A stretch of 64,000 nt of DNA from Antedon mediterranea (taxonomy: Eukaryota; Animalia; Echinodermata): positions 2,124,422-2,188,421 of the forward strand of contig NC_092678.1 of NCBI RefSeq assembly GCF_964355755.1, given 5' to 3'. The notes beneath the pieces were generated by a model that had not been told where the DNA came from, ran no database searches, and worked only from the letters and a program-made list of their open reading frames with translations. A program made the position numbers and the translations under genes. This document shows positions 3,712 to 53,600 of this stretch, one piece after another (within the stretch, counting starts at the first letter, position 1; every line of letters starts with the position of its first letter).

Positions 3712-3765
3712 ATTGAAATTGATTTCACTCAAACATCGGTTGCATCAAACTGCTCCTACAACTAC

Positions 3766-17600: not shown

Positions 17601-20600
17601 ATTAAATGCACATACAGTTTTAGCTATCTTGACTTACTCGCCAGGGAACTAAAGTCATCTATGTTATATTCAAAATCCTGTTGCTTAGATGGTATTACTT
17701 TAAAAAAAAATTATCACACATATTGTTTAAAATCTTATAAAAAGTTATGGTATATTTGGCATAAAAATCTATTAAAAAAACTGTAAAGTTATTAAAATAA
17801 AAGAAAATGAATTAATTAATAAATAAAGATTTGAACCCAGAATGTTCTGCTTGATATGCAGACATCCTAAGTTCATGGTATGGTTCAATTGGATTGGACA
17901 GCGACTAGTTTTAGCCTTTTTAAAAAACAATATAATTAATTATAAAATGAAATTATTAAAATATATGTTTGGTAAACAATCAAGAAATAATTGCTATATC
18001 TAAGAAAACAAATGCATAAATAAACTAGACATGTAACTCGTCACTTTGATGAGTTAGTTATCCGCCCGACAAACGCCACGTGCACGTCATACGTTGGAAT
18101 ATTGCACACAGAAAAAGATTATGGCATTATGACCTGAACTGAAGAATATGATATGTTGTTATTGCTGAATTCTGTTATTTTGTGTCATATAGTATACACA
18201 GTATAATCTGTATACATATCACATACAGTGTAGAATAGGTGAAAATATGGGACCCGCTATTTATTCAAATTTTTAACATGTTGACAGTTTCAAAATGAAA
18301 CTCAAATGTAGCAATTTCGGAAGGAAATTATCTCAGCAACAACATATTAACGTGTTGAAGAAATTTGAATACGTGAAATATTGATGCACTCTCTTTTAAA
18401 TGTAATGAACTATGACGCAAAAGATGAAAATACGACTTTTTTATTTAACTGGCCATATGATGACGTCACAACATCCGATTGGCAAAATGTTAACATGATT
18501 TCATATCTACAATCCAATAGCATCCAATAGCTTCCAGAAAACGTTTTAATCGTGATTATCACATTTTATTTTGACAAGCTATAACAGATTAAAATTTACT
18601 GTAAAGATGAAAATACGTGATAATATGATTTACATTTTTAGACATGATGACGTCATAAAAATTAAAATATTGTTAACTCATGCGAAAGATATTTGATTGA
18701 CCTAGACAATATTAAAATCTCAGAGAAAATGTAAGACGAATAAGTGGAGATGCGCTCCATTGAATGTGATGAGCAAAAACGAAAGAGACAAAAATCCTAT
18801 ATTTTACATTTGTGTGGCCATACGATGACGTCACAATGTCCGGTTAGTCACATTACTGTTTGATATCTACAACTCATCAACTTCCAGAATACAAAATGAA
18901 AATAACTTTCACCGTTTAGTTTAGAAACTACGACTGTTTAAAAAAAGGCATAATTTTGACAAAATTTTGAACTTTTTCATCAAAAAAGCACGCAAATTGT
19001 CCAAATTCAGCGTGCTCGTATGACGTAATTTTAGGTTGAAATTGTTTAAAAGTTGGTAATATTACTAGAAAAGGCTGGAAAAACATAAATCACCCAAAAA
19101 AATATGTTTTTAACGCTACATGCGCTCCACATTCTGCGCGTGCGTGGGAATTTAGAAATTAATTTTGCTCATTTTAAACTTTTAAATGCGCGTGCGCGCG
19201 TAACTTTGTGTAAAACACACAATTAAACGCAAATTAAACTTTTGCAAAGTTTCAAGTTAAAATGTTATTTGGTTTTTGACCTATGTTAAATACGCAACAT
19301 TCATAAAATCGCGCTTAAGTCACGTTGCGCAATTGTAAACATTCTGAAAAGGTTCGCTGCACAACTTCATATGAATGGCGATATGTTGAGAAAGTTACGA
19401 AATGTTATGTTTGCAAGTTTTACAGATACGCGCGACACAAAAAATTACAGAAAGAAAGAAGATAAAGAAAAAAAAGATGTTGATTTCGTACAATCACAAG
19501 GAGTTATCCTGCAACTTTGTTGCGGATAACTAATTTTAGTAAATTATAGTAGAATCTCCTATTAAGGAGTCACCTGGGAGGTAACAAAATGTCCCTTTAT
19601 AGGGGTGTCCTCTAAATAGTATGGATGCTACTCTATAATAATGAAAAGATGAAAATAATGATCATTCAATTGGCATAAAATAAACAGTATTAATATATTT
19701 TCTGTATATAGTAAATATTAATAGAAATTATATAAATAATTAATGATAATATTATTCTGCTCCATTAGCATCATGACCAAATCTAATAAGTGAGTACTAG
19801 GTATGGTAAACGACTTTTGTCCTCTGACCATTGAATATAAGATAGTGCTATGTGATAAGCAGTAATCTACATACTAAAATAATTTTACAGCAGAACTCCT
19901 TTTAAGTGGACACCATTGAAACCTAATCTCTGTGTGTAAAAATAAAATCATGCAGGTGTGAAAGTAAAGACACCCATTGTCAGTAAACAAAATGCATGCA
20001 ATAAATCCCAATTCTGTATCACTGCAGATAAGAAAGCTGTCATGCAGTAAGCACAGATATTTCTAAAAAAAACTTTGATTATTAAGTAGAATTCCAATAT
20101 GCTTTGTGGTGATTACCTTCTGTTGAATTGGCGGTCACTTTACATGTAAAATTACTGTCTATAACTTGGTCTAGAACTGTGAAGAGTTTAAACCAAATTG
20201 TATAAACGTTGACGAAACAGGAAACTAGTATTTATATTATTTATTGCATGACCTCTGGGGTCCTACTATAGTCCAATAATTACTCTACTCTAAAATAATT
20301 TATGAATAGTTCTTTTTACTCTCAATGTGATACAAAAATATATATTCATTATTAATAATTAACTAATAGTAATGTTATACTATCAATATGTAGCATGTTA
20401 CACAATAGAACATGAGGGTTTTGGGTTGAAATCATGGCATAGTCACATCAATATGTAGCATGTTACACAATAGAACATGAGGGTTTTGGGTTGAAATCAT
20501 GGCATAGTCACATCAATATGTAGCATGTTACACAATAGAACATGAGGGTTTTGGGTTGAAATCATGGCATAGTCACATCAATATGTAGCATGTTACACAA

Positions 20601-26600: not shown

Positions 26601-29600
26601 TTTTCCATGCTATTAATAATTGTTTTTTTTTTTTCCAGGCAGTACGAGAAAGCTACCAACTTATATAGTCACATGACCTAGCGGCAGACTATACCACTTT
26701 CTTTTTTTATACAGATAATTTTATTTTTCAAATACTAAGCCAAAATAATGTGCTATAGACAGTAAACAGTTCGGGACGCATGCTCCCTAATGCAATTTGA
26801 TCTTTTTCCGAAAATCATGGGGACTCATTTAATGTGTGCTCACTTTGAGACTACAATAATTGAGTTACTAAAACGTATTTCCTATATATCATATACCGGT
26901 AATTTATGCAAATTTTCTTGTTTATTCAGAATTTAATTGTGCAAAAGTGGTGAAAATAAACAGTGCAACTAGGAAATGAAAGCGTGTCTGTTACTGATGA
27001 ACCACACTGAACATTTACAGATGTTATCCTGGTTTAACATAGGTCAAAGTGCAAAGGTAAAATTCAGTCACATGACTATTCTAACTTTGGTATCATTCTC
27101 AGGATTTGAAATGCAGCTCCATTAAATGTTATGTATGAAATGGAACTACAATTTAATGGAACTACTTTTTTTGTATCAAGTTAGCAGCTTTCACAAAAAT
27201 GGATTTTTTTTGTAGTTGTTTTATTTTCCGTGCAAGAGTCTATGCAGAGCTTTCGTTAATGGATGGATGCGTTTTCTGAATTAGCATAACAGTGATACAG
27301 TAGTATTTTCGGCATACATGTTTGTGAAGCATTCAAGTGGTTATGTACCTTCAAAATAGGCTCAATTTCTTCCTGGTATGCCATGAGAAGTTGAATGATC
27401 GTCAAGAAATGATTTGATTAAAATGAAATATTCAACAACCAGTTGGGGTAATAGATTATAGGGATCGGAATGTAATGAAGAAAAAAGAAACAATCATTCT
27501 ATTCTGCATATAACATCATTGTGTATTATTGGGGGCACACCCAAGAGAAAATTTGTTGAAATCCGCAAATTTTTTGTTTTATAAAACAGACAATTTTGAA
27601 TGATTAATATGATAAATAAACGTTCAAAATTGTCTTGTTAATAGTTAGCAATTGTTTGGTCTAGATTAATTTCAGGCAATATTTCATGGAAATACTAAGC
27701 AAAATTTGTGAGAAGCAAAACAAAATATGTGTCCGTGGCCTAAACCATTATGCGTGAGACAAACTGTCCAATCTGAAATTAAGCTACAGTGCATTACAAA
27801 TTGAAGCACACTTTACAAACAATATGGGACAAGAAAATTAAAGAAAATGACAACACGCCAACATTTCATTAAACAATTTACTAAAAAGCAGACTAAATTT
27901 GGCGAATTGTTTTTGTCTGAGTGGATTTAATTTAGAAGACTGTAAACAAATACAAAACCTTCTGCCCTTGAACAATTCAAGGTCAGAGGTCACACAAACG
28001 TGAACGATCACAATCAAGACACTCAAACCACTCAAACAAAATTGCAAATGTTCGTGTTTGTGATATATGTAAATGATTTTTTTTTAATAATTTTGTGTGA
28101 CAAAATGTTTCAGGGCCATTATTATTATTTTGAAACATTTTATTACCATTTTAAGGTTCATAGTGGTAAAAGTTAATCTTTTGTCTTAATATAAAATAAT
28201 TTTAAAAAATATCAAAATTTCTTCATAGCAGCAAAACGACTTGCTTTTTTATAGATAACTGTTACCACAACCCCTGAACACATATATTTGTTATCTTGCA
28301 ACTTAACATTTTATCAGAACCAGAGCCTGAAATTAAGGCTTAAACAATTTGGAAAGGTCAAATGGTAAAGGTCAAATGGTAAAGGTTATCAGAAGTGAAT
28401 ATATTGTTTCTTCTTTCAGTAGAAAATTCTGAAGATAATGCTAATGTTGCCCTGTGATAGGTGGTTGCCACACTCATTTATAATTTGGATGCATGAAAGA
28501 AAAGAAGATAATAATCATTAATGCACCCTTAATTTGTTAAATTATTCATGCTGATGGCCAGTACATCTCATTAGCATAATTGGCTTTAGAATTAACAGGG
28601 TTAAAACATTTCCCAAAAACAGATTGGACAACCTTTTAACCAATAATGAAAACCCGTAGCCCTGGTTAAAAGTGGAAGAATCCAAAAAGAGTATAATATA
28701 ATAATCTGTAAGTGTTGGTCTTTATTGTTAAGGTTGGGTAAATTTTAACATAACGATCATCATTGAAGAACAGAAAAAGGACTTTAAAGCAAGAAACCAT
28801 CACAAAGCAAGTAAAAAGCCAATCCATTTTCTAATGTGCTACGGGGTATTATAAATTTGCAGCAACTTGGGCAGTCTCGGACATTAAAGGAGTTGGCACA
28901 TCCTTATTAGGAAATCTATGGAGCAATGAGGCAAGTTCTCACATATAACATCAGTACATTAAACATCTAACATTACTAAATTTGTCACAATTCTACTTGG
29001 CAATCGTTTTATTCAATTTCTATGAATATTGTTCTAATAGCCTAGTAAAAAGCGTTTTCTAATTTGAAGCTTAGCTAGCATAGCTTAGGAGAAGGAGGAC
29101 CTTATAGATATGAAGGCAGGTAGCTTATAGCATGGGGGATTGACTTGGGAAGGGTGGGTTTCTTTTAAAATCCTCAAAGATTGATTTTCCCTTTAATGGG
29201 ATTTTTGGGATGGAGGTTGGTATAATCTTAATTAGGATGCCCATTCATTTTTAAAAAGTAATGAGGCCCATGTAAAACCTTAAGCTCAGTCTACACTATC
29301 AAACTAGTTTGACAAAAAAAAGTGTGATGTGCCCAAATATGGTATTGATATGACATTATCGTGTCTATATATAAGCACATCATAATCTTTTGTCACATAA
29401 AGTTTGATAGTGTAGACAGAGCTTAAGTGCTGCCTTATGGTTAAACTTTGCGACTGTGATGCCGGGATAATTTATGGCTGTAACAATATCTATAGAAACT
29501 AAAAAGCATTTCAATTTTTGCTTGAATATTTTTCCCAGTTATTCAGTGAGAACAACCCTCAATCATTGTATTACTTTTAAGCACATTTTTTTTTTGGAAA

Positions 29601-32600
29601 GAAATTTCATGCGAAAGACAAAAATCACTCACCTGGCCTTTGAGTCGTGGATGAATGAGAATGTAACCGTTGCTGTTGATTCCGAATGCATACCCTTCAG
29701 GCCCAATCTGGAGGTAAACAAATAACATCAACAAAAATGTTTTTAATAACATGATTCAAAAATACACCTTTAAACGAGAAGTATGATATTTACATTTTAA
29801 AAATCAAGGGTTAAGTTATGAAATTATTAAAATATGAATACGATTGTTGATTTTGTTTTTTTATTTTCATTTCATTATAAATAAAAATTTGTTGATATGT
29901 TTCAAGAGAACAAATTTGCAGGATTTTAACCCAAACTTATGGTAGAAAAACAAAAAGATAACTGCTATGCTGTATGTATTACAAACTGTAAGACGAAACA
30001 TGAATCTCTCTGAAGAGTAGGGTGTCACCTGATGTGCTGGTCATTACAACCAGACTGGCAAAAGAGCAGAGTTTGGTGGCAGATAAGAGAGATGATAAGT
30101 TGTTGTATGTGACATCTCGTCAAATGCGCTTTAAGATGGTCATTACTGAATAAGGTGCATTATAAATAATTATTTATTTAAAAAAAATAATTAGCTTTTT
30201 AACCTGTAGAGTATGCTTGATAGAAGAAAAAAATAATTACCTAAATAATAACTAAATGTGTTTTATGTATTGAAAAAAGTATTGAAAATGTGTACATTAA
30301 TGTAAATATATTGAAAAATGTAAAACAAAGAAATAGTACATTTGATTTACATTAGATTAGAGTAATAGAATAGAAAACTAGATTAGTAATAGAACATACA
30401 CTAAAGAAAACAAATGAAGAAATGTATTCATGATTGTACAGGGAAGGGGGGGGGGGGTACTAATTTCTTACCATTGTGTGTAGTGTGTGAACGCAATAGA
30501 AACTTACCATACTCAAAAGTGAAATACAAATAGATAGATAGATACAATGATAGATAAACATGCAAGTGTGAAAAGGGTTAATTATTATCAAATAATTCAT
30601 AAATTTACATTAGAAAACCTAATAATTAAATTTACGAAGTAATACTATACCTACTAATATTTCTACTGATATAAACTATCTTGTATCTACACCAGTAGTA
30701 AATTGTTCATATTAATTATCTTTTTTAAAAAACCATTTAATTATTATACAAAGATAATGTGTAATTAATTTTATATTACAGTTTAAAATTACATCATTTA
30801 ACATTAAAATACACCATTTACAATACCAATTTGTTAACTTAAAACATATAACATGGGAGTATGGTTTCTATACGGAAATCTAGGTCATATTAATTACAAC
30901 AAAATTAAAATACAAATAAATATAATAATATTATAAACTAATTGGAAAATAGGCAACAAAAAGTACCTAGATTTCTTAATAAAGATACAATTTAATTATT
31001 GTTCCTTTTCTTCAAATAAATAAATAAATATACTACCAATTAAAATAAAATTAAATGTAAATAAAAGAGGTATACAGAACTAACTTTATTGAACAATCTA
31101 AAAGAATAATTCCACTCAAGGAATACTAAACATACAGATATGAGCTTGACAATTTAATAAATTGTTTATCAAATGATTTAGCACGAATAGCCAACACAGA
31201 GAACAAATAGCGAAACAAATATACAGTAAAACACAGAAGCTCTAAATTGTGTAGAAAAAAAAATGTTTTGCACATTAAATAATTATAAATAAAATATGTA
31301 CTTAAAGCATAAAAACTAAACATAGAATGGGATGATCAGCCATTTTGCCATTTTGAGTATCTCTAAACATGTATTAAATAATGGTATTCCTGTCTCTGGG
31401 GATAAGCTTTAAAGTCTCCTGGGGTATTAGGCTATTCCAAAGCTCTGTCTACACTATCAAACTTTTGTCAAACAAATTTGATAGTGTAGACGTCTCAAAG
31501 CTTTAGGGTTAAGTTGTCTGGTATCCCTTTCACACTGCCTAGCCTAACTCCAGAGTTTACACACACCTGGGGAGTCAAAGCTAACATTTTGTGAAAGGGT
31601 TATAGGATAAGAATTGTTCTTTCTTTAGGGGAAACACTAGCACGTATTGCTTGAACAGATCTTGAACCAATGTGTGACCAATGTAGTACGAGATGTTTAG
31701 AATGTTGTTGTTGATGATGCTCTAGGCCACAACATAGGGATTTAATATTAGACAATGTATAGCATTACAAAACTTCCCAAAAAAAAAAAGTTTTACACTA
31801 AAAGCACATCTAAATACATACATCAAAACATATTTAAATTTAAATTATTAAAATATGCTGGTGACAAAATGACAGATGTGAAATTAAGCAACTATTGCTA
31901 AAAAAAATCTGAAACGGAGTTGACAACAAAAATCACCAACTTAAGGTGTTGACAACAAAAATCACTAACTTAAGGATTTTACAACAAAAATCTACTGGAA
32001 GAAAACAAAGTGAAAGTCACAAATTTCACCGACATAAACAATATCACCAACTTGTACAAACGATACTGATTACAAATAATTTGACTAGTTTATCGAGGGC
32101 GCCCTGAATGCGTTTTTTTCCTCGGACTGTTTCAAACTTACGCAACGGTAACTGCTATTAAAAACAGGCTGTAATAAAAGAGATAATAATGCATTTTTTT
32201 AGTCTATTTTCCACAAGAAATGTAAATTTGAAATCTTATGTTAAATTTGATATTTTTATTTTTCAGGGGGACATTATTTAAATGGGAAGTGCATATGGAA
32301 CTATATTGAATATTATATTCCTTATTATTGGATACAAATAAACCAATATTTATATTATTGGCATAAGCAGAAGAATCATTGAGATATGAATGGATGAGTA
32401 TTTAAATAAGTATTCATTCTTATCAGTAGTAATTGTGATAGAAGAATGAGGATCTTACATGAAACATTAGTAAGGTAAGATTTTCAGTACACCAATGATT
32501 AACATCATTTAATATGTTAAGAATAACTTGAAGCTTTGATGGTTGTACCACAAAACTGTATCGAAAATCTTACTTTACTATTAAAGATGTTTATGAAATT

Positions 32601-35600: not shown

Positions 35601-38600
35601 TGTTTACAGGATTATACATATTATAACTTAACTAAAAAATTGATATATGAAATATTTTCATACAGTATATTGATAACAAAGTTTTCTATTCTTTTCTATT
35701 CTATTCCAATAGTCAAAATTATCGGCACAGGTTCAAGGTATTTGTAAGTGGAGAGGGGAACTATATGTCAACAAATAATTCTTGGTCCTTTCTCCATTAA
35801 ACGGTTGTCATAATAATGCTTTGTATTTCTTTTCTTCTTTATTGTATGTATTTGTTTCTTATGGACAGTTTGTCGGAAATAAAGTTGAATGCTTTTCTTG
35901 ATCATATTTCTGGTGATAAAACATTCTGGGACAAGGACAAGAGATCCAGTGTACACATCTGGCACGTGTGTACTTAAAGAACACAGCGCACTACCCTTGT
36001 TACTATTTTGTCCATTTAAGGAATATTTCCTGGGCCAAATCATCATGAATTCTATTCTTTTAACTGTAGCCTTTTTCAATTAAAATGTAAACGATATTAT
36101 TATATACTTTAACTTTGTGTTTTTAAATTTATATTTTATTATCAACCTGTAATTGGTGCCTTGTACTGTTGGTTGTGAAATAAAGAATAAAGAAAAACAA
36201 AGAATAAAGAATGTCCATTTACTAATGCAACATAATGTTTACTTACCGCTGAACCATCTGGAAGTTTTGTCTTGTTAAATGCTGGCAGTGTTAGTGTGGT
36301 CATCATTCCAAGTCCCTGTAATGGTTTTAAATAATAATAATAATACTAATATTTCTCTTAGCTTCTTTATAATCCCTATGTCACATGTGATCTTAGGTGA
36401 TACTTGGCATGCAACAACTTTTTACCCAACAAAGTGTCCCTAACAAAGTGTCGCTTGCAAAGAATGACCTGAGAAAGGTGTCAGAAGAAAGTCCTACAAC
36501 ATGGTATATATATTTTATACATTTGCTCAATTACAATAAATAAAACATTACATTTAAAAAGATAATGGCTTACCAATGCATCTAGGTAAATGTTAGACCA
36601 CTGATATGTCCGATTTCCTGCTAACACTAGAGGACGACTCAACACAGGAATATAATCCTAGAAGAAATAAGCGATAGATTTAGAGGCTTAATGGTACATT
36701 ACTAGGCAGCCCACCTTTCAATATTATATTGTTCACCAGGTGGAATAACCTTCAATGGACACACAGCTAGGCATCATGCATTCTGTTTTTAAGCTGTATG
36801 TTACATACCAGATTCATTTTAGGGAAGAGTGAAATTACAATATTTAAACCGTAAGTAACCCTAATTTCACTCTTCCCTGATATTATAAAGTAGAAAAATA
36901 AAAAAGGCCAAAGTAAACATTCTACTTACCAATGTTGTTAACCGAACAGCTCCGATTGATGGAATATTGCTAAAGTAACCTATACAAACAATAGGAATAA
37001 AGATTACTTATACAATGTATCCAATGAATGAATGGAACACTTTTTACACCTCTCAGAGGAGAGAGATAAATGAAGGAAAAGTTAAGGTAACAAGCAGACT
37101 AAATTGTTGAATACTAACCATTTGTGAGACAGGCCATTTCTTTTACTCCATCTGAAGATACCATGGCGTTTGGACCTACATTGTACACAAATATTCGTGT
37201 CTAAAAGAAAATGATCAAAAACATTAAGCTCAAATAAGTTGTATCAGTTTTTTGTTTCCAATTCCAGACTAAAGCATATAGCCTAAGGATACAATCAGTA
37301 TGGCAGAGGCAGGCTCGAACCTATGCTAGTCCGACTTCCTTATCATTACACCTAATAACTCTCCAATCTATATCCTAATGCAACTGAGCCAACATTGCTT
37401 AAAAACGAGGATCTGATTGACGAGAACCGGTGATGGACGCATTTCTATTTCTTTATAAGTATGCACATATATTTTTTTCTTCCATTGTAAATGATTATGA
37501 CTTACTCTTTTTTGATCATTGTACTTTTTAATAATTTCTTCGCCAGAATCGGGGCCACCATCTGTGAACATCAGGATGACTGAATTACAGTCCGCTCCTT
37601 TGCCATTATCAGAAGTTGTGGCCTCATCCATTAGCTACAAAACAAAATATCAGGTTATTAAAGGATATAATATTCCATTCCATACTATCTTATATTCTAA
37701 AATTTACACTTTACATTCAACATGCTATGCACTTTTCAGTTTAAACCTTTTTCCAGTCGACATTGAGTTGTGGTTGCTGAGCCAGACAGGCCTGGAAAAG
37801 AATTAATTAGGCCTATCACTGATATATTAACGATTCACAGGAAAAGAGGTAAAAATCAAAACTATAAATCGTTTTGCGACACTTCATGCCTTTTTGTCTC
37901 AGCAATGCTTGAGAGTAACCTTGGTTTAGCAAAACTTCATGTCTTTTTGTCTCAGCAACGCTTGAGAGTAACCTTGGTTTAGCAACACTTCGCATCTACG
38001 TGCCTAAGCAACGCTTGAAGAAACGCTCAAACAAGTCAAATTTTAAACGATCGATAAATTTTGATCTTTTAAAATTTGTGTAAATTATTAGTAAGTTATA
38101 AAACACATTTACTTTATCAAGGGATATAAAGGCAAATTCCAAAGCTCTTGTATAGTTTGCCATCTCCTCTGTCGCATTATTTTCCATATACTCTTTCAGT
38201 TGTTTCTTTAAATGCTAAAAAAAAATAAGATTATTACATAATTTTCACAATTGCGTTTGTGTTTGGATAGCAATAACTTCTTTACTATTTACTGCAGTTA
38301 CTGCAGCTTTTGTCCAACTTTAGTTTGTTTTTAAAAAAATGTTTTAAATATACATGAATGGCAACAGAAAAAAATCGAAAATATGATGGAGGCCTGACTT
38401 CAGATGGGTTATACAATTTGAACATTATTGCACTGCAAACACGGGGTAGCCAGCGATTGAAACAAATGATGGTAAACCTAAATTTGCCCAATTCCAGTAA
38501 AACTCTAAGCCAGAGGACAAAGGTTATGAGGTTCGTTTATGCTAGATTTGACTGAAATTAAAAATAATGATAGATGTTTGATGGGTCAACTTTATGCAAG

Positions 38601-41600
38601 AAGTATAATTATGCCAGAGATTTAGCCATTATGTTTGCTATTTTTTTCAAAAACAAAATAAATGAAGTTGAGAATATCGACATTTTGGTTGGGAAATGGG
38701 AAAGTCTTTTCCATTTTAGAAACTTTGCGCCACAAACTTTACTAATTTGAATATTAAATATTTGCACATTACCTGTTTATTTCTCAAATTAGCTTGAACA
38801 AAAGTTGTCAGTTTAGGATCTAGAAATGTTGTGTTGTCATTGAACTGTATAGAAGACAGAAATATGTTATATATAATTTTCATATAATAGCCATATAGAT
38901 TAACATTCTATTCAGCAAAAAAGCCAATAATACACAAAGAGAAATTACTTGTTGGCCACACTGTACAAAGGTTCAATTCTCTCCACCAATAAATCCGGTA
39001 GAACAAGTCTTCTCAGGTCGTGTGCAACCCAATGCATCTTTTAGAAGAATAGTGGTTAGTATGATGTACTGATGTGCTCATCGTTCATGTTAGGCTGCAC
39101 AGTGAACCCTGTAGAAGGCCTAAATCAAATTGATAATAATATAAAACAAACTCACCATTGCTACATTTACAAAGTCATCATCTCCAAGCGTGTCAATTGC
39201 TTCGGAAACAGAAACTTTTATCAAGTTTGAAGTGATGCCACTGGTACTACCACTCCTAATATGGAAAGGTGTTTTGTTAAATAAGCTCTGTCTACACTAT
39301 CAAACTGGTTTGACAAAAAGTGTGATGTGCCCAAATATGGTAGTGATATGCTTAAATATGGTAGTGATATGACATCATCATTTCCATATATGGCCACATC
39401 ACATTTTTTTGTCACAAGTTTGATAGAGTAGATACAGCTTAAAGATGTATCATCCCTCTAAAAATAATCCTAATAATAAAAAAATAAAAAATGTTCTTAC
39501 ATATCCACAAGTATTAGAACGTCTTTTGGTGAGTTGGCCGCACCGATGTACCTGAGAAAAAAAATCAGATTTATATTTGATTATAAAGAATTTAAATAAA
39601 TTAGTATATTATTTTATATTATATAATAAAGTTAAAGCTGGTATTACTATTCTAAGCATAAGAATCCCACAATACAGTCATGTTTAGTGTTTTGGTTAGT
39701 TGTTTCATATTATATTAGGTAATTGGTTAGACTATTGTCGTAATTCTTTGCAATATTTTGTCGTCAAATTTAAAGATGTATTGTCCCGAAAAAACATGAA
39801 AAATGAAGTTTAATAAAATTTTATAATAATAAAAACTAGGCCATTTCACAGTTTTATTTGTTTATGTTTTAATGAGCGTCGAAACAAATTGAAAAATCGG
39901 CTTCGCTTCATTGCAAAAACACATTTTATTTGTTTATGTTTTAATGAGCGTCGAAACAGATTGAAAAATCGGCTTCACTTCATTGCAATAACACATTTTA
40001 TTCATTTTTATTTAACTATATAAGTACTAACTTTCTGCTAACAATTGCTGATCATCTCTAGATTCACATCAATTGTTCAATTTCAATGTAATTTTAATAG
40101 AACATTAAATGAAGGCTATACATGTTTTTAATTACTGTTCTGCCTGATTGCACATTAACATAGTAATGTCATTTTAATGAACCATTCGACAATGCTGTGG
40201 TTTGATGTATGTATGTTTGATTCAAATGCATGTAAACTATGGGAATTCTACTTGACTGCATACAACATAATATTCTAATGCATTTATTTTTAAGTGCTGG
40301 ATCAATAAAATTGATTTTGATAAGAAAGGTGTTAAAACACTCCTTCAATTAAATCCAAAAAAACAGATTAAGCAAACATAGAAACTAGGTCTTAAACAAT
40401 GCTATTTATAAATATATTTTTTTAATAGCTTTTTAGTATTTTGGAGAGTACTGTATATTGTTTGTAGGGCTATCATGGTGATTATATGTTCTTTGATGGA
40501 GTTGGGTTCACGGCAACAAAGTACGCAATAATTGGATAAACCGGTAAATTGATATCCTAAAAATATTGAATTAAATGATGCAAAAGTTCATATAGGGTTT
40601 TTTATATAAATATGTTTTTTCTGATATCAATTTTCTAAATTTGTTTAAAATATGAAAACAATGTTAGAAATTCCGAATCATCTCCCAAATCCAAAGATAT
40701 TGATAAGCCGATATTTGCATATTGATTTTGCCCGTAAAGACCGAGCGACATTCAATATCCCGCCACTTCACCTGTAAAAATCTGCTTCGTAATTGGCCAG
40801 ATTTATGGTAAGGAGGGCAGTTGATGTGTGACATTGTTAGGAAATGGGATTCCATCGTTTGCACTTTAAGTGCTTGTATTGATGTGTCAGTTTCAAGTAG
40901 AAATTCAGAGTCAAACTAAAGTTATATTATTTATCTGGTATGCAATATTAAGCACATGTTTGAAAGTGAACAGAAAATCTTCAATTGGATTACAAATGAA
41001 TATGGACTATAAAAAACTGCATTCGTGCGTATGTATGTACATGATAACAGGACTGCAGACATAACAAAAGGAAGGTGAGTCCATTTTTTCATAGTAATAT
41101 TATTCTTTACACATGGTAATAAGTACCTAGGAATAAGCAATTTTGTAGTAAAGTTATTGCTTACTTGTCCAATTAATATTTGTAACATATAATATAATGT
41201 ATACTTACCTTAACAAAAAATTATTAAAAATTTGTAATAAAAATCTACATAATGCATCACACTACATATATAACATTAAAACGTGCACATTACAATAACA
41301 CTTAGTTTTTAAAAACTGTTATACTACCAATAAAAATACAAAATAAGAAACCACAACACCATACATGCAACTACTGTACAGGAAGTGCCAAGTAAAAATA
41401 TCAATAATAATAATAATAAACATGGCCGGATCAAACGACTAAGCAATGAACAAAGTGGTTATGTTAACCCATGGCTGTCAAAAGTAAAAAAGAACACTTA
41501 GTTTTGATAATCAACTTAGAAACATAAAACAATTTACAAAACAAAATAATAAATAATAGACAATTCTTTCATGTTAAAGTTAGAGACTGTTCATCTACTT

Positions 41601-44600
41601 CTACAAGAAAATGTATGTGTTTTCCTACTTATTACAATAGTAGGAGTAGTCAGTGTGCAAATTTAAAGCATTGAGAATTATTTACATTCCTCCATGTTTT
41701 AACTAATCTATTAAAGCTCTGTATACAATATCAAACTTAATGTGATGTGCCCATATATAGACATGGTGATGTAATATCACTACCATATTTGAGCACATCA
41801 CACATTTTTTTTCAAACTAGTTTGATAGTGTGGACAGAGCTTTAGACCCAGTTGAAGACTAACTTTTTAACAAGTTTATGTATCTAAAAATTCTGTCTAT
41901 ATCCTGTTTTACTTCAGTTTATGTACCTGCTAATGAGCAACGCAGCTATTATTAATATATAATATTCATTAAAAAGGAATTGTAGCAACACACCTGTCCT
42001 GAGATAATGTTTATAATATTATATTATCTTTTATCCTCAAATAAATAACATGGAATACTAAAAAAACCCAACTAACATACATGTTAATAATGAACAAATA
42101 CAGGTGTACATTTTTTTAGATTAATAAAAACATTCCTTGGGAAATTCGGATGGATATACAAAACAACATTTGAATAATTTATATATCTATAAATTGGGTA
42201 TAATAATTATAAAATACAGCTTGACATCAACTAAACATCTAATTTACCAAACTCACAAACTGGCATAAACACTATATAAATACAAACATAGAGAAAGTGT
42301 ATACAACAACTGTATTGGAACATCTATACATCATAAATATTCATGAGACAGAAGGAGGTGAAACACTGAGGGCAGCAAACTCACCAGCTTCTTCGTCTTA
42401 CATCATATTGATCCATTTGTAACTTTTTGCTGAGTTTCCATTTTTTGCCTGGTTTAATGTTTGCCAGGATTGGAAGAAAAATGACATTGCCATGAATTGA
42501 CTGTATGGATAATTTACATTAAATAATCCAGCCACCAAAATGAAATTGAATAAAAAATATTCAGTTGAAAAAAAGATGCATTCAAATAAGATTCTATTAA
42601 AATAATTTTGCTCACGTTTCAAACATATCTATACTGTAAGATATAGCCTCTGTACTCTAAACACATTTTTGTTATTGCACGCATCCATATGCAAAGGGTA
42701 TTAAAATGACTAAAATTAAAGGTTGAAGGTATTAAATTGACAGTTGTAAACCACTCTGGTTTAGTAAACCGCCAGGGGGAGTTGAATCTTTCCAAGTGAT
42801 ACTATAACAAATGCAATAATTAATGTTGTGTGACCGTGGAGGTAAAAATAAAAAAAAACTTTGGTATTCATTGCTAAATAAACAGTCAAGGGTTTTAAAT
42901 TTACAGTTGAAAACCATTCTGGGGTATTAAATCTTTCCTAATGGATACATAAACTTTAAACATAAATCCTTAATGTTGTGTGAGTTAAAAATCCTTTTTT
43001 TTAATTCATTGCTACATAAACATTTGTTTTTAAAAATAAATGCTATAGAAATGTGTGTATATAGTATATATACACATATTAACAGCTAAACATACATTTA
43101 TCACACCCTTTTAAAATCTTTCTCCTATAATTCAGAAGCTCTACATACTTGCAATCCAAATCGGGTTTTTTTTCTCAAGTAAACATAAACTCAAAAGTTT
43201 ATTAGAATTTCCAAATAATCACCTTTTAAAATTGGAAACCAACAACCTAAAGTAGAACTATTTTAAATTCAGACTGTCTGGCTGCAATCGGCCAACTCTT
43301 GTCTAGAAATTCTATAATATGGCAAGGTTACATCATCAAGTATGTAGCTTAGTTTATATCGGAAATAAGATCAGCTAACATAAATGTTAATATACAAAAT
43401 TTACATCTCAAACTAAAAATCCTAAATGACTTCACCAGAGGCAGGTTAAAAAATGTAGTCAACTACAGGACTCAAACCCACGACATCCAGATCACTAGCC
43501 TGGCGTTCTACATCTAGACAACCGCATATTAACATTGTTTATAATAACTACTAAGAGAAGGATACTACATTATAATTTTCTCATATTCTGACGCTTAGCT
43601 TGTTATTGTTATATGCTCTGATAATTTTAAATGAAGAGGTATATTATAAATGCATGTATGAGATGCATGTAATGAATTACTGTGTTAAAACTAATGTAAT
43701 ACTGATTACCTCCTGCATCATATAGATTATTTCAGAGTTAAAGCCAATCTCTGAGTAATTGATACCAATGCTTGAGCTATGTCATACCATTGTGGTTCAC
43801 TTTAAACACTACTCCCAATTTTTACATAAGGCTGTATAAATTCACCCATCCCAAGGAATGGCCTTACAAGTCAGTATGGTAATGACATGTAAATTAATTT
43901 CAAATTTATAAATATAAACAGCAATTTTACTTTCATTTCAGATTCACATAAAAATAAACCTATTTGTTTTGTATATTAATTTAAAAAGGATAAATATATC
44001 TTATTAAAAATATCATATACTAATTCATATCATACAATACAACAATAGTAAAATTAGATTAAAACTATGTTTATTGTACTTCGTCTATTGAAACCACAAC
44101 TATTTTTAGGCCTAATTTTTATGATTAGAGAGTATAAGAATATTTTGAGTGTAAAATCAATATGTAATTTATGCAATTATCGTATGTAAGGATTATAGCA
44201 ATGCATATAGCAACAATTTTATATTTATTCATATTAATCATATAAGATTAGATTATTAATGGAAATGGCAAAAATACATCCAAACACATCAATATTATTC
44301 AGTGGTATTAAACTGTTGTAAATTGTACGACATAGCATCAAAGCAATATATATTAGCATACGAAAGGTTTTTGCAACATAACTATACAGTAGAACGTGAA
44401 GGTGAAGGTGACACATTCAGTACCCAAAAGTCACCTTAACATGGTTGTTCCCTGAATAGGGATTGACTATAATGTTAAGTAAACCTATTGTAATTTTATG
44501 TTTTAAGATAATATCTATTGAAATCATGGGTTAAATTATGGTCCAATGATATGATACCTTCCTTGCAAATGAAATGTGCAGTTCAATTCATACAAACAAA

Positions 44601-47600
44601 AATGCAATGGATGAAAACCACTACTGTATTACACAGTCATATCCATAGGAAATTTCTCAACAGACTTATCTCTTCTAATTCACAACACAACGTAATTTAT
44701 TGCAGGAGAAAATGGTAAAATGTGATAAAGTCGCTTTAATACAAACATGTCACATTTCAGGCAAATTAAACAGCCTTTTGGGTAGTAGTTAATAAGGTCA
44801 CAGATTGAAACACACGCTTCTAACAAAGCATGGTTAGAATAATAACATAGGATTATCTGAAGAAAACAATGTTCTCTACTCTATAAATATCATACAAGTT
44901 GTATTTTTGTAATTCTCGATAGGTATCTGTCATTTCTGAGCATTTTCTAATGTTAAACTAATGGTTTGGTATGACAATAGCATTGTAGGTAGGGATGTCT
45001 GACTAAATGAATAAAAGTTATGAGGATTCTTGAGGCAATTCTACATAAAACCCAATTATAACAATATATTATTAATACGCAAACATTCTTGTTTTTAATA
45101 ATTCTGTATTAACTATAAGTGCAAATTAAGGCTTCTTAAAAAGCTATATAGCTATCTATACTAATATAATTTTATCATTAAAACACAGCACAGCAAAAAA
45201 AAGACACTTTACCCAATTTTCAACTTTTCCAAAACATTTTTGTTGCCGACTTTGTAAATGGGATAGTAGGGAAGGGGAGTGTGTGTTAATTATTAAATCA
45301 TTTCAGCTTAGGTGGACCTTCTCAAGCAACATTTCCAGAACTGTCAAATATTTAAGTTCTGTTTTTAAAAGGTTTTTATTTTAAATATTTTTTAGTTTTC
45401 ACTGAGTTTTTTTGGTGCAAGTTACTGGTAGTTTTTAGGGCCTAAAGTTTCTGGGGCAATTTTTCTTTGGTATTTTATGGTTTTAAGATTTGGAAAAATT
45501 GACTCAGCTAATTAAAAGAAATAAAGTAAGGAATTAAATCTAAATGGTTGAAAAAAAAAATCACTCTTTCTGAAAACAAGCAAACATTTTACCATCGTCG
45601 AAACGTGACCCTAAACAAATCTAGACCAGTTGGATCTATGGGATTTCTTGTACCTGTCACCAGATAGAAAGAAAATCTATTAGTAAAGAATATGGAAATA
45701 GAATGCATAGTATTGTTTATTATTATTATTTATTTTTCTATATTATTACTTATAAATTAAAAAAAATATAAATGCACGAGATCAACAAACCAAAGTAGCT
45801 TAAAAAAACCTCCATGGATCGAAGTTCTACATGCTTTTAGACTAGAACAGACATTTTCAAGTATCATAGGCACATTCTATAATACAATGTCATATATGTA
45901 TCACATGTGACATCTGTATCATGCTTATAGCCTTAGATAAGGTAAATATGACACTGTATTACATAATTTGCCTATGATACTTGCTTGAAATTATTATACA
46001 GTACTATTGAATAAGAAAAATTATTATACAGTACTATTGAATAAGATATTTATCTTATTCAATAGTATGACTAAAATTTACTTTAGTATTTTACTGCCTG
46101 AAGGTTCAGCTATGTTGTCTTGGCAAAAGTCATTTATATAATTATTATAAAATATTCTTATAGAATGCTAATAAATTGGCGGTCCTGCTAGTCTTTGAAA
46201 AAAATTGCCAATTACAGTTGAAGGACACCGAAGGTAATAGAATGTTATGCATGAATGCCTTGGAAAATGAAACTAAAATCTTTCAACATAAAAATTTCAT
46301 TATGTTACGGAGATCTTTTTATCAAATGGATATTTTTTTTTTCAATGCCAACAATTGTTGCATATATCCATCAGTGAATTTCCTGACATGATATATCATG
46401 TAATTTGCAATTTTCTTATTACATTTCACTTAAATTAGGTTTGTGCTATGAAAAGTGATCTCTTTCAATGAAATGAATTCACAACTTAAAACATAACCTA
46501 CTTTTTCATTTTATATCTACAGTAGCTACGAAATATTAGATTTTCTATTCCAATGTAACCTTAAGCCGGGCGCACACTTTATCTATCGGCTGAGACAACT
46601 GGCACAAATAGCTATACTGTGCGCCAGGCTTTAATCAAACAAATGTTCATACTGTATGTATAAAGCCTTACCCATTTTGTAATCAACATAAAATAGGGAT
46701 TTGATTCAAACAAAGTGTTATTAGCCATCATTTGAGCTGTTAACGTCTACATAAAAAATGCGCAGTAAACTTACTTGTTGAAATATACATAATAGTCTAT
46801 GATAGAGGCATTGCCGTAAGGGAGAACTTTGACAACGTAAAGGAGAAAGATAAGGATTTGTCTCTGTATAGGTCTATGTACAGAAATATATCCCTTTGCT
46901 ATTGTACCTGGAGTATTATTATACAGGATGGTATGTGATTAAAATTAATCAACATCTAAATGATTTCTTTCGAAACGCAGAACCAAATTACACAATTTGT
47001 ATCGGATTATATTAATAAGAAAATGATACAACTAGGAGAAATATGATTCTCAAAAGGAATATCATATTGTATATTAATGATTCAATAAATATGAAATCCA
47101 AAGAATTTAAAATATGAAATATTAATGTCAACTACTAGTTTTCAAAATTATTATACTGTAATATCAAGGAACAAAATGTTTTAAAAAAGAAAATGTTGCA
47201 ATATAAAAGTATCCCAAAATTTAACAAAATAAATAAAGTATTTAAACTCAGTTTTAAATTTAAAAATTCAAAAATATTTATGCTCATGTTACATCATTAA
47301 ATCTTTATTTTTAAATCATTTCATCTATTTAAGTCATTGGCCATTTAATTCATATTTGAATCCAATTTTCTTGGAAAGAAAGAGTAAATTGTTATTCTTA
47401 ATGTTCAATAAAATTACCATGATGCACTAAAATTATAGCGATGACGTCGATGAACACGGAAACGCGTTCGTACCAAGGTAGATATTTTTTTTATGATTAT
47501 TCAATTTTTGGAAGTGTGAATTGGGTATTAATGTGATTCATATTTCAAGACATGACTCACACAAATTAATATTTTTACTTTAAAAATAATTGTTAAATGT

Positions 47601-50600
47601 ACTGTAGGCATGATTTTTTTGAACAATCATTTTGTTTTGAACTATAACTTTTCTAACAGGTCTGCCTCCAAATAGCAACCATTCTTTGTTAGCACAAATA
47701 CAATATATGGCGCTATTTCTTTAAAACAAATCTAGACTTACTTATTATAACTAAATACCTGTACTACAATAAAACATGCTCTCCAAAGATTATTTATTGA
47801 AGATGAACAGAGGAAAGGTAATAGAAAATAAATGTGTCTAAAACTGCAAAATACAGTTAAAAACCCTATTACCCATTGCCAAGTACTTTACCCATGTCAA
47901 AAAAAAGGTTTTTTATAGAAGAAGAAAACAAAGAAAAGTTAAATAAAAATTGTCTAAAATTTACAAAATGTGGTGAAAAAACCTCTAATTACCGATTGTT
48001 TTCTAACTACTTTACCGTGTCAAAAAAAAAGTATGTGGAATTTAAAAATGCGGTTACCATGAACGTGTTCGTCTGTCCAACACGTCAACACCGTGCTTGT
48101 TTGTGTGTTCGTGTGGGGATCCTAATATTGCGGAAATTAAGATCCGATGAACACATTATTGTTTACTTGCGTAACTTTTGGCAGAATAAAATTACTCGGG
48201 TTCCAAAACAACCCAGGAAGAGTGAGATTATATGGCAACATGTCGAACCTCACACTAACAGATTACTAAAACATGCGGTACAACCGCTTGGCACCATTGT
48301 ATCATTAACTAATTGTTTAACGTGATTTTACTCGACCCTGGTAATGTATCACCAACTAACATTTCTTGACTATACTGAAAGTTATAACCATGTTTTTAGA
48401 CGTACTTTATAGTAAAGACTTTAATAAACCAACTCTCTGCTGTTTATGCTTATAATTCCATTATAAGCAGAAAATGTTGAGGAAAAAAAAATTGTTAACC
48501 ATGTCAACTATGATAATGTCAAATGGCTTTAACGGAACATAATAGAAAAATGAGTATTTCACATTACACTTTTCAATATTTCAAATAAAAGACATGAATA
48601 AATCAAGAAATACATCATGAAAATATAATGAAAATATATAACCATATGGAATTATTTAAAGATTTGGAAAGATATTGTTAAAATAAAAAAAATGGATTAA
48701 TCACAACAGAAATAATATCGTTCACCTTGATTAGTTTTACCAGTAATATACCATATACATTTCCTTTTGACCCAATATCATAACCGAACAAACATTACCA
48801 TGATGTTCGTCGTCTGTCCCTATCATCAATACCGTGAGCATTTTTATATTTATGTTCAGATCCTGAATGTGGGAATATCCATAAAAGTTGTGATAGCAGT
48901 GGTATTAAGGGAAATTGTTATGTACATAGTATATGCATAGTATAGGAATATATGGTATGTACCAAACATGATAAGGTACTAGATATAATTATACATTGTT
49001 TGAAATTTATTCAGTGTTATATATATATATATATATATATATAAACACATTAGGCAATGAACATTAATTCGAAACCGTATATATATATACAAATCCATCC
49101 AAAGGCAAATTACTGAAAAAAATGACAATGCTGTGGGTATATATATATATACAGTAATACTATTAGACAGATAATTATGAAGGGGAGGAGCTTGTGCATT
49201 GCTTGTTGGAATAAAACGTTAAAATGTAATGTTTTGTTTTGAGTAATATATGATATTGATGATTTGGACATGGAGGTATAAAATAGAAGGAGAGAGCTCG
49301 AAGGTATTGTAGCGCGTTAACAGGATGTCGCCATGGTATTTTCAAAGCCAAAGCCTTGTGCCGACAGCGCGCTGCGCGGACTTTGTTACCAACGTCAGCC
49401 GCCGCCTCTAGTCAGCCCTCTATCACAGAGGAGGTGAGATCCTAAAAAATACACAAACAAACACATATACTTTTGGCATGCGCAGTGCTATTGTTTGTGT
49501 TATAATTGTTGCACAATCAAATGTTTGCTTCCCGCTTAAAAAATCTCTAAATATTGATACCAAACATGTTTACATATGACATTTTAAGCAAATTTTATCA
49601 GGCTCCCATTATAGTTATTATTGTAATTTACTTGCTGTTTATACAATTATATGTATTTCGATAAAATATTAATAGACGTCGTCAGACAGCTGTAATTTTG
49701 TGTGAAGAACACATGGTTATTACTTTACATTCTTACGTTAGTCGTTGGGCTGCCGATGATTGCCGGCCAAAGATATTGACGAAATACATTAGTAGGCATA
49801 TTTCGCGGGTTTGTTGACAATGGATGGGGGAGGTATTCGATTACGAAACCGTGACTAGGTCTATAGTTTTAGGCTAGGGCCGGAGTAGTCCTTGCATAAT
49901 TATTATAATCTAGACTAAAAATATAATCATTGCTGTAGCAGCCATTTTATCTCCTCTGCATGCAGAGTAAACAAGCATGTGACGTCACGTCGCCGATATC
50001 AGGAGGCATGCGCAGTGACTCGGAACGCGACTAGGAAGCGACAACGCGGAGAGGCACACTGCGCGTAACATTGTGTAACATGCTGAGGCGGCGGACTACG
50101 TAGTACAAAGGCTTGTCTTCGGAGCTCTCTCCTTCTATTTTATACCTCCATGATTTGGATCTGTCAATGTTGGTGGTAATGATGGTGAGATAATGATGAA
50201 TAATTAGGATGTGCAATAAAAAGAATTAAAATGATGATGTAATCATGTTCAAATTATGACATTAATATTATCTAATTAATTGCTAAAAGTCTCTTCCACC
50301 TTTATTAGTATTCATTGCACCAGACAGTGTTTAAATTTTAGGGAGGAATATCAAATAATTATTTCTACAACTTCTTTACCAAGATCGTAGTCTGCGGTCT
50401 AAAACATCTATACCATGTTTGTTTCGATGTTCATGCTCCGATCCTAAAATCATTGAGAACATCTTTTTAAATTGACATCTTTGTTAATATTAGAAATCAT
50501 CAACATTTAATATTAGTGATCATTATTTGTGACCACGTGCTTATTATTCTGCTTTGATTGGACCCTTTTCAGTGCCCACAATGTTTGATGTTTGTGGACA

Positions 50601-53600
50601 GTTTATTTACCATGATTGCTTCCTTCGGTCTAATACATCAACACCATATTTGTTTCTTTTTTCATGACGTGATCCTAAATAATATAATAAAATGTCAATT
50701 TCTTGATAGTTACCAATGATTGTGATGATGGTATGATGATGGTTGTTGAGTTGGTGGTATAGATGATGGTATGATGATGGTTGTTGAGTTGGTGGTATAA
50801 AGATGATGGTATGATGATGGTTGTTACGGTGGTGGTATAGATGATGGTATGATGATGGTATGATGATGGTTGTTGAGTTGGTGGTATAAAGATGATGGTA
50901 TGATGATGGTTGTTGCGGTGGTGGTATAAAGATGATGGTATGATGATGGTTGTTGCGGTGGTGGTATAAAGATGATGGTATGATGATGGTTGTTGAGTTG
51001 GTGGTATAAAGATGATGGTATGATGATGGTTGTTGCGGTGGTATAGATGATGGTATGATGATGGTTGTTGCGTTGGTGGTATAAAGATGATGGTATGATG
51101 ATGATGGTGGTATAAAGATGATGGTATGATGATAGCTGTTGCAGTGGTGGTATAAAGATGATGGTATTATGATGGTTGTTGTGGTGGTGGTATAAAGATG
51201 ATGGTTTGATGATGGTTGTTGCGGTGGTGATTTTAAGATATTATTATTGTAACGTTGATAATGCTTTTTTGTAGTAAGTATATGATGGTGCCAATTTTAT
51301 TGAGTAGTATGTCTATTGCTTGGTGGTAACATGTCTTCCAATTCAAGAGTCCTGTGTTCAAATCCTTCCTCTGTCCATTTTAAACGAAAACAGCAGACCA
51401 ATCCAAGCTGCCATTTTGTTTTTATTTCAACCATGTGGTAAACCACATGGTTTACTTGCGTAAAAATTAGGTTTTTGTATTAAATTGTGATGGGTAACTT
51501 TACCTGGGTATGATCTATAGAAGCCTGTTGAACTCCCCACATATTGCCAAAGGAGATCGGTGTCTTTTTCTCTATTGTTAATAAAGATTTCATCAATTCC
51601 GTCTGTTACTTTGATTGCGTTGAGTATAATAGGATCTACAATACACAAAAATAAATATAGTTATGCAGTTAGTATGCAGGAAGTATACAGTACTTATCAT
51701 TATTGGTAATAAACAAATATAATTCTACTCGCAAAGGAGGGTTAGGCAGAAATGTTTTTTTCTTCTAAAAAAGATTTTTTAGAAGACATTTGTTTTAACT
51801 TTCGAAAAGAAGGGTGGAATGGGGTGGGGTGGTGAGGGGAGGATGGGATGGGAGATAAAAGCTGACATATCTATCAACCAGTATAGCTTCTGTCCCTGTT
51901 TTTAGTTTGTTAAATTGTTGTATTTATTTTTTCCTGACCTTCATTGTATATATCTGTAGGTATCTGTACTGCACTCATGTCAAACGTTACATCTTTTCCA
52001 CCGAATTTGTCGTCTAAAATCGATTCATTGGTTATGTTGTTAGCGTTCAGAAAATCCACGTCAGGAAACTGCCAAAAAATTAATTATTTTAATAATTACT
52101 GAAATATTAAATCAACTTATTATTAATACATGTTGAATAGTAGGAATACATGTTGAATAGTAGGGATACATGTTGAATAGTAGGAATACATGTTGAATAG
52201 TAGGAATACATGTTGAATAGTAGGAATACATGTTGAATAGTAGGAATACATGTTGAATAGTAGGAATACATGTTGAATAGTAGGGATACATGTTGAATAG
52301 TAGGAATACATGTTGAATAGTAGGAATACATGTTGAATAGTAGGGATACATGTTGAATAGTAGGAATACATGTTGAATAGTAGGAATACATGTTGAATAG
52401 TAGGAATACATGTTGAATAGTAGGGATACATGTTGAATAGTAGGAATACATGTTGAATAGTAGGGATACATGTTGAATAGTAGGAATACATGTTGAATAG
52501 TAGGGATACATGTTGAATAGTAGGAATACATGTTGAATAGTAGGGATACATGTTGAATAGTAGGAATACATGTTGAATAGTAGGAATACATGTTGAATAG
52601 TAGGAATACATGTTGAATAGTAGGGATACCTGTTGAATAGTAGGAATACATGTTGAATAGTAGGGATACATGTTGAATAGTAGGAATACATGTTGAATAG
52701 TAGGAATACATGTTGAATAGTAGGGATACATGTTGAATAGTAGGGATACATGTTGAATAGTAGGAATACATGTTGAATAGTAGGGATACATGTTGAATAG
52801 TAGGAATACATGTTGAATAGTAGGAATACATGTTGAATAGTAGGGATACATGTTGAATAGTAGGAATACATGTTGAATAGTAGGGATACATGTTGAATAG
52901 TAGGAATACATGTTGAATAGTAGGAATACATGTTGAATAGTAGGAATACATGTTGAATAGTAGGAATACATGTTGAATAGTAGGAATACATGTTAAATAG
53001 TAGGAATACATGTTGAATAGTAGGGATACATGTTGAATAGTAGGGATACATGTTGAATAGTAGGAATACATGTTGAATAGTAGTAGGGATACATGTTGAA
53101 TAGTAGGAATACATGTTGAATAGTAGGAATACATGTTGAATAGTAGGAATACATGTTGAATAGTAGGAATACATGTTGAATAGTAGGAATACATGTTGAA
53201 TAGTAGGAATACATGTTGAATAGTAGGGATACATGTTGAATAGTAGGAATACATGTTGAATAGTAGGGATACGTGTTGAATAGTAGGAATACATGTTGAA
53301 TAGTAGGGATACATGTTGAATAGTAGGGATACATGTTGAATAGTAGGGATACATGTTGAATAGTAGGAATACATGTTGAATAGTAGGAATACATGTTGAA
53401 TAGTAGTTAGGAATGAATTTAAGACTTTTGAATCTATGGAAATTTTTCAGTTTTCTGAAAGTCTTCCATTATGTCATTAACCATTGAATGCATTAATAAA
53501 TATAAATTAAAAATTAATTACTTCTTCGTAAGTAGCATTTAAAGATGAATTTTCTAAAAATTCAACAATGTTCTGAAAGACAAAAAATGAATAGTTTAGT

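Follow-up and report, generated by a model that had tools for sequence, protein, structure and literature searches.

In the Dscam1 clusters, homologous exons lie in tandem and one of them is used in each productive transcript. For the alpha2delta subunits of calcium channels, Dunn et al. (2018) described three mutually exclusive exons in the VWA-Cache interval of Aplysia, oyster and octopus (PMC5818475). The Results section of that paper makes no mention of the amino-acid pocket of the protein, which was defined later, in 2022. In the leucine-bound structure the pocket comprises 12 residues, W223, Y236, R241 and W243 among them (bioRxiv 10.1101/2022.10.03.510667), and the carboxylate is held by Y236, R241 and W243 (bioRxiv 10.1101/2022.10.03.510667; PMC8915833). 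The natural ligand and the purpose of this gabapentinoid pocket are described as open questions (PMC9901441, PMC12303104). Here we describe six homologous exons in an alpha2delta gene of the crinoid Antedon mediterranea, contained in a 64,000-nucleotide stretch of contig NC_092678.1 (positions 2,124,422 to 2,188,421; hereafter the window). Used one at a time, the exons of this tandem-duplicated array would each yield an intact protein with a differently shaped amino-acid pocket, and on sequence comparison we put at about 0.6 the probability that the purpose of the array is to change the ligand preference of that pocket.

Layout, splicing and constraint of the exon array

The A. mediterranea RefSeq alpha2delta protein can be placed exon by exon on the window, from 55288 to 8565, and the exon upstream of the array matches it with 100% identity. 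A VWA_N + VWA + VGCC_alpha2 architecture was found above the Pfam cut-off in all four isoforms scanned, and a fold search with a model of the isoform containing the first variant exon (E1) retrieved alpha2delta-1 structures with an E value of 1e-76 and template modelling (TM) scores of 0.72/0.84. Pfam, PDB sequence and fold searches thus agree that the gene is an alpha2delta, as a preliminary description of this stretch had proposed. In a FastTree phylogeny of residues 131-625 (variable exon left out, midpoint root) it falls in the alpha2delta-1/2 lineage, in which echinoderms and Ptychodera join amphioxus, vertebrate alpha2delta-1/2 and mollusc sequences. As expected of alpha2delta subunits, the Antedon protein is predicted to associate with Cav1/Cav2 channels and to act in their trafficking.

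The six variant exons, named E1 to E6 in transcript order, are 64/64/64/64/61/64 nucleotides (nt) long, stop-free and of phase 1-2, and all have AG|G...TG|GT borders; the coordinates, phase and splice borders given in the preliminary description were reproduced. The exons concerned are listed here with positions of human alpha2delta-1.

51504..51635, minus strand: constitutive upstream exon, Cache1 strands; W188, Y190, Y198 and S200 correspond to human W205, V207, A215 and Y217
50611..50674, minus strand: E1, His/Leu/Gln at human 223/236/241; RefSeq isoform X3
50380..50443, minus strand: E2, His/Leu/Arg at human 223/236/241; RefSeq isoform X4
48799..48862, minus strand: E3, His/Arg/Thr at human 223/236/241; intact, under coding constraint; in 0 of 10 RefSeq proteins
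48058..48121, minus strand: E4, His/Leu/Arg at human 223/236/241; intact, under coding constraint; in 0 of 10 RefSeq proteins
45593..45653, minus strand: E5, Asn/Phe/Arg at human 223/236/241; RefSeq isoform X5
42385..42448, minus strand: E6, Trp/Tyr/Arg at human 223/236/241; canonical, ancestral-type exon; in 6 of 10 RefSeq proteins
39501..39551, minus strand: constitutive downstream exon; last base of the W243 codon, then into the VWA domain
36574..36657, minus strand: single exon for the other pocket half; Y443, D445, A446 and L447 correspond to human Y450, D452, A453 and L454

It is very probable that the array is productively spliced one exon at a time. Stops follow when all six exons are skipped, in all 15 pairs and in all 15 four-exon sets, within about 80 codons of the start of the upstream exon, and the frame rule proposed earlier therefore holds for the zero-exon form and for every pair. 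Among the ten RefSeq proteins E6 occurs in six and E1, E2 and E5 in one each (X1, X3, X4 and X5 have one variant apiece), and the tenth begins at Met241, past the array; one variant exon per protein, as had been predicted for transcripts, is thus the rule in nine of ten annotated proteins, and the other combinations tested run into stops. Four sequencing runs over 38700-50700 cover the introns like DNA, the 15 joints listed (out of 501) include no splice joint, and of the letter differences listed for the region (40 of 96, too partial to count) none lies in a variant exon.

A scan for AG|G...TG|GT(A/G) segments (length 1 mod 3, stop-free, 40-100 nt) returned seven candidates in the 12-kb interval, i.e. 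the six exons and one unrelated segment overlapping E3; elsewhere in the window it returned seven on the minus strand and six on the plus strand, and these are all unlike the six exons. No seventh exon copy was found with a DNA profile or a protein profile. A possible extra exon near 47410 was rejected, since it has a donor-like site only, with neither acceptor nor homology.

In relatives, compared at the protein level, alternative versions of exactly this segment are present in nine of the 13 echinoderm species or clusters compared with Antedon: five in Lytechinus variegatus, three each in L. pictus and Strongylocentrotus purpuratus, and two each in Acanthaster, Patiria, Asterias rubens, A. 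amurensis, Apostichopus and one Holothuria cluster. Alternative versions are known here from four echinoderm classes, and alternative peptides are kept between genera within a class. On these comparisons the exon array is a phylum-wide feature under selection and not a crinoid oddity. The contrary picture considered at the outset, in which E6 alone is spliced and relatives have no variants, disagrees with these versions and with the E1, E2 and E5 isoforms predicted in RefSeq. The closest matches of E1-E4 are each other, which suggests an expansion in the crinoid lineage. Three Logan proteins of 1083-1103 amino acids, on contigs of 4.6-6.0 kb, contain the sea-cucumber alternative segment, and we infer from these that spliced RNA carries it. 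Isoform X11 of L. variegatus has a 7-residue leader which, read one frame off, fits 4 of 144 segments, all four of them sea-urchin alternatives. This leader points to the order seen in Antedon, with an alternative exon preceding the canonical one, and to a leaky inclusion of two exons. In hemichordates, the sole model of Ptychodera flava has a non-canonical pocket segment without W223, and Saccoglossus and Glandiceps are canonical, which gives only a hint that this group may share the array. Vertebrate matches are of the canonical type only (109 of 109 in fish and 75 of 75 in other vertebrates), which supports, at the protein level, the earlier statement that vertebrates have a single version.

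The variant exons show the marks of coding constraint. In all 6 pairs of E1-E4 the proportion of synonymous differences (pS) is 0.55-1.02 against 0.16-0.39 for nonsynonymous differences (pN), and 36-46 of 64 nt are identical within the exons against 14-27 of 60, the background level, in the 60-nt flanks. When 20 random substitutions were simulated, the splice sites, the split Trp codon and the frame all remained intact in 4% of trials, per exon. By the pS/pN values and this simulation, E3 and E4 look like coding exons and not debris. E1-E5 might nevertheless be mostly unproductive, either duplicates in decay or poison exons acting to reduce expression, with E6 alone mattering as protein. Such a reading could draw on the donors, all GT-type, which match the consensus at 7 of 9 positions in E6, the strongest, against 5-6 of 9 in E1-E5, and on the N-terminally truncated isoforms annotated in Antedon, Patiria, Lytechinus and Apostichopus. 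It is very unlikely, however, given that synonymous sites are near saturation yet amino acids, splice sites and frame are preserved, that so few simulated exons survive, and that the alternative peptides are conserved between genera.

Steric exclusion was ruled out as the basis of exclusivity, because the introns between the variants (167-3144 nt) are too long for it by the generally accepted limit. The preliminary description had likened the locus to Dscam, and the layout agrees; in a test with 150-nt flanks in this one genome, no docking-selector stem rose above controls, the best mean duplexes (-14.8 and -14.6 kcal/mol) lying within the range of 12 random-flank controls each, and a seed scan found no recurring docking stem. 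Exclusivity is instead probably leaky and policed by the reading frame, so that zero- and two-exon transcripts would go to decay or truncation through premature stops and E6 would serve as the default exon. The frame rule and the truncated isoforms of four species fit this combination of regulated choice and leaky exclusivity.

Two repeats lie within or beside the array. Between E2 and E3, 884 nt of the window (49269-50152) are taken up by a likely non-autonomous DNA transposon, which has perfect terminal inverted repeats of 31 nt and an elevated read depth; pairing of its ends in the pre-mRNA (-61.7 kcal/mol) could bring E2 and E3 closer by shortening the intron. An imperfect 40-nt tandem repeat of ~13 copies occupies 50724-51229 and ends 50 nt upstream of the E1 acceptor.

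Pocket residues encoded by the variable exon

The variant exon aligns with A220-W243 of human alpha2delta-1, i.e. with the YxxxxRxW half of the dCache_1 motif, as the preliminary description had recognised. It covers four of the 12 residues of the leucine pocket, among them the three that hold the carboxylate. As background we used the 115 parsable segments out of 145 representatives examined; of these, 111 have W223, 114 have Tyr or Phe at 236, all 115 have D237 and R239, and 90 have R241 (with Gln there in 17 and Thr in 3). The 17 alternative segments (five from Antedon and 12 from relatives, two of the latter identical) have all lost W223; they keep R241 in 15 cases and an aromatic residue at 236 in nine, and W243 is fixed because its codon spans the donor junction. 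Emphasis had earlier been placed on the motif arginine. The exon does contain that position, but R241 is kept in four of the six Antedon exons, and the consistent change is the loss of W223.

The E6 isoform has the complete motif, with Y217, R222, W224, Y443 and D481 at the positions of human Y236, R241, W243, Y450 and D491. By this motif it is a candidate dCache_1AA amino-acid sensor, and amino-acid binding is predicted for it. The E1-E5 isoforms fail the YxxxxRxW motif, the Tyr being replaced by Leu (E1, E2, E4), by Arg (E3) or, conservatively, by Phe (E5), and the Arg by Gln in E1 and by Thr in E3; E5 also substitutes D237 and R239, which are invariant elsewhere. A clamp that is mostly kept and a lid that is replaced is the pattern that would be expected of a retuned side-chain preference. 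In E2, E4 and E5 the R241/W243 carboxylate clamp would be retained and the side-chain lid swapped, so that another amino acid could fit, and in E1 and E3 carboxylate binding may be weakened or rewired. The small molecule that is held, if there is one, is thus likely to differ between the isoforms. Because pocket occupancy in vertebrate alpha2delta is tied to trafficking, exon choice would tune channel surfacing, and cells that pick different exons could adjust how, or in response to what, their calcium channels reach the surface.

The same substitutions could have a simpler effect, in that the alternative exons turn the pocket off or make it ligand-independent, leaving folding and trafficking indifferent to amino-acid levels. 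The near-invariant W223 is dropped in every tabulated alternative segment, five of the Antedon and sea-cucumber types also have no aromatic residue at 236, and mutation of the arginine (R241A) impairs vertebrate channel enhancement and trafficking (PMC12303104). R241 is kept in 15 of the 17 segments and W243 is fixed, however, and four to five distinct versions, all under constraint, are more than a single off-switch would require; we therefore regard an off-switch as improbable and prefer a change of ligand preference.

Several observations weigh against that preference. E3 and E4 are in no annotated isoform among the ten RefSeq proteins, and the RefSeq XP isoforms are themselves predicted models. 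A single version of the segment is present in 4 of the 13 relatives (Diadema antillarum, D. setosum, Amphiura and Anneissia). For the alternative exons, position 223 was assigned by its distance from where the exon begins. A change of ligand does not necessarily follow from losing R241, since Gln and Thr at 241 are natural in single-segment proteins and UNC-36 is reported to have Thr there (bioRxiv 10.64898/2026.09.15.751774). An added Trp or Phe alone left the surface expression of alpha2delta-1 unchanged in the experiments reported in PMC9901441, and the physiological role of the vertebrate pocket is itself unsettled.

The label of gabapentinoid pocket, used in the preliminary description, is doubtful here because the constitutive Tyr198 of all full-length isoforms occupies the site of human A215, at which a Phe is reported to bar gabapentinoids in alpha2delta-3/4 (PMC9901441). 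Bulky residues are common at this position in the background set, and Ser200, which replaces human Y217, might offset Tyr198. When modelled with AlphaFold, the E1 and E6 isoforms have equal mean predicted local distance difference test (pLDDT) scores (83.1) and the same secondary structure across the exon, with values of 67 (E1) and 77 (E6) for residues 211-220; the models say little about the pocket because the underlying alignment is dominated by canonical segments.

The opposite half of the pocket in lophotrochozoans

The segment with Y450, D452, A453 and L454 is encoded by one exon in the window (36574-36657) and is of the canonical type only in the echinoderm isoforms parsed (17 entries were unparsed). 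Two to three alternative versions of it occur in Saccostrea, Haliotis, Elysia, Lymnaea, Physella, Biomphalaria, Lottia and Nucella, and a non-canonical one in Octopus, Ylistrum, Potamilus, Lineus and Owenia. Among the 9 lophotrochozoan alternatives tabulated, 8 have another residue in place of Y450. The preliminary description knew of no earlier alpha2delta case, but the mutually exclusive mollusc exons of Dunn et al. are in print, at a different exon (PMC5818475), and exclusive splicing in this gene family is therefore not unprecedented. All gastropod alpha2delta-1/2 sequences listed have Gln in place of the motif Arg241, so in this class the chemistry of the pocket is altered constitutively as well.

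Two animal lineages have used exon duplication to vary opposite halves of the pocket, which speaks for selection on its chemistry and against a mere relic of folding. Variation might instead be aimed at the exposed loop, setting the pairing with Cav alpha1 or with synaptic partners and changing the pocket as a by-product. The differences do lie mostly in a surface loop, with net charges from -3 to +6 across segments, and Cache1 faces the repeat III pore loop of the channel (PMC5655503). However, D171 and E174, the Cache1 contacts named there, make a modest contribution and are encoded upstream of the array (PMC5655503), and the recurrent loss of a pocket-lining Trp, together with the mollusc exons for the opposite half, indicates the pocket; a role centred on the loop seems unlikely, and retuning of ligand preference remains the reading that we favour.

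More tentatively, invertebrate alpha2delta may be a splice-diversified small-molecule sensor, for which echinoderms and lophotrochozoans separately built arrays on the two pocket halves: the echinoderm array on the N-terminal half, which handles the carboxylate and side chain, and the lophotrochozoan array on the C-terminal half, which handles the amino group. If so, neurons and muscles could link calcium-channel abundance to different amino acids, amines and transmitters, as bacterial dCache paralogues do. Isoforms that are identical save for ~20 pocket-lining residues would be a natural tool for asking what the pocket is for, and the sets occur in animals with experimental tools (sea urchin, sea star and Aplysia), making ligand identity and the link between occupancy and trafficking directly testable. 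Two arrays on complementary halves of one pocket were not found in the literature searched, and the echinoderm array is absent from titles and abstract openings on alpha2delta splicing, echinoderms and exon duplication (subscription papers and supplements lying outside this search); it is apparently an undescribed variant of a known splicing design.

Other alternative exons lie elsewhere in the gene and in relatives. A second pair of 60-nt exons, also on the minus strand, is at 20117-20176 (RefSeq X1) and 17638-17697 (X2), and X9 has neither. Short cassette exons at ~32139-32171 (9 residues) and 27380-27417 (8 residues) are absent from RefSeq X6-X8 and are close to the positions of vertebrate regions A/B. 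A Branchiostoma lanceolatum gene model has two homologous copies of a short segment at the VWA end (residues ~300-365), possibly a third alpha2delta exon duplication. Downstream of the alpha2delta gene, a further minus-strand gene (window 631-3744) has repeated exons rich in cysteine, with 631-912 nearly identical to 1532-1897, and probably encodes a signal peptide; two of its exons were scanned and matched no Pfam family at E 0.01.

Comparison with known systems

The Antedon array differs from the Dscam1 clusters in having six exons and not dozens, and its docking-selector pairing was not above controls in the flanks tested. In vertebrate alpha2delta-1, splicing of regions A, B and C also falls within the Cache domains, and loss of region C lowers gabapentin affinity; these regions involve cassette exons or an alternative acceptor and lie in loops distant from the motif, however, and no swap of the motif between homologous exons is described among them (PMC9901441). 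The same motif is found in the bacterial dCache_1AA chemoreceptors PctA, PctB and PctC of Pseudomonas, paralogues that vary in the loop immediately preceding the motif Tyr (PMC6974571, PMC8915833). Residues 109-118 of PctA, which correspond to the variable segment described here, contact ligand side chains and change with specificity, PctB using the same stretch to select glutamine (PMC6974571). There the diversity arose by gene duplication and the ligands have been measured, whereas in Antedon it arose by exon duplication.

The molluscan exons belong to the same gene lineage and share the design of homologous alternative exons at one position (PMC5818475). In our own alignment they encode Y450/D452/A453/L454, i.e. 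the other half of the same pocket, and they follow the VWA domain, whereas the echinoderm array precedes it. This different exon implies a separate duplication. Several mollusc gene models also hold two or three versions together in frame, unlike the echinoderm array.

The best functional analogy is with FGFR IIIb/IIIc, in which a duplicated exon swaps half of the ligand-binding site and changes specificity (PMC8373072); CACNA2D does not occur in the text of that paper or in the one supplement checked. The FGFR case differs in having two exons and a protein ligand (PMC8373072).

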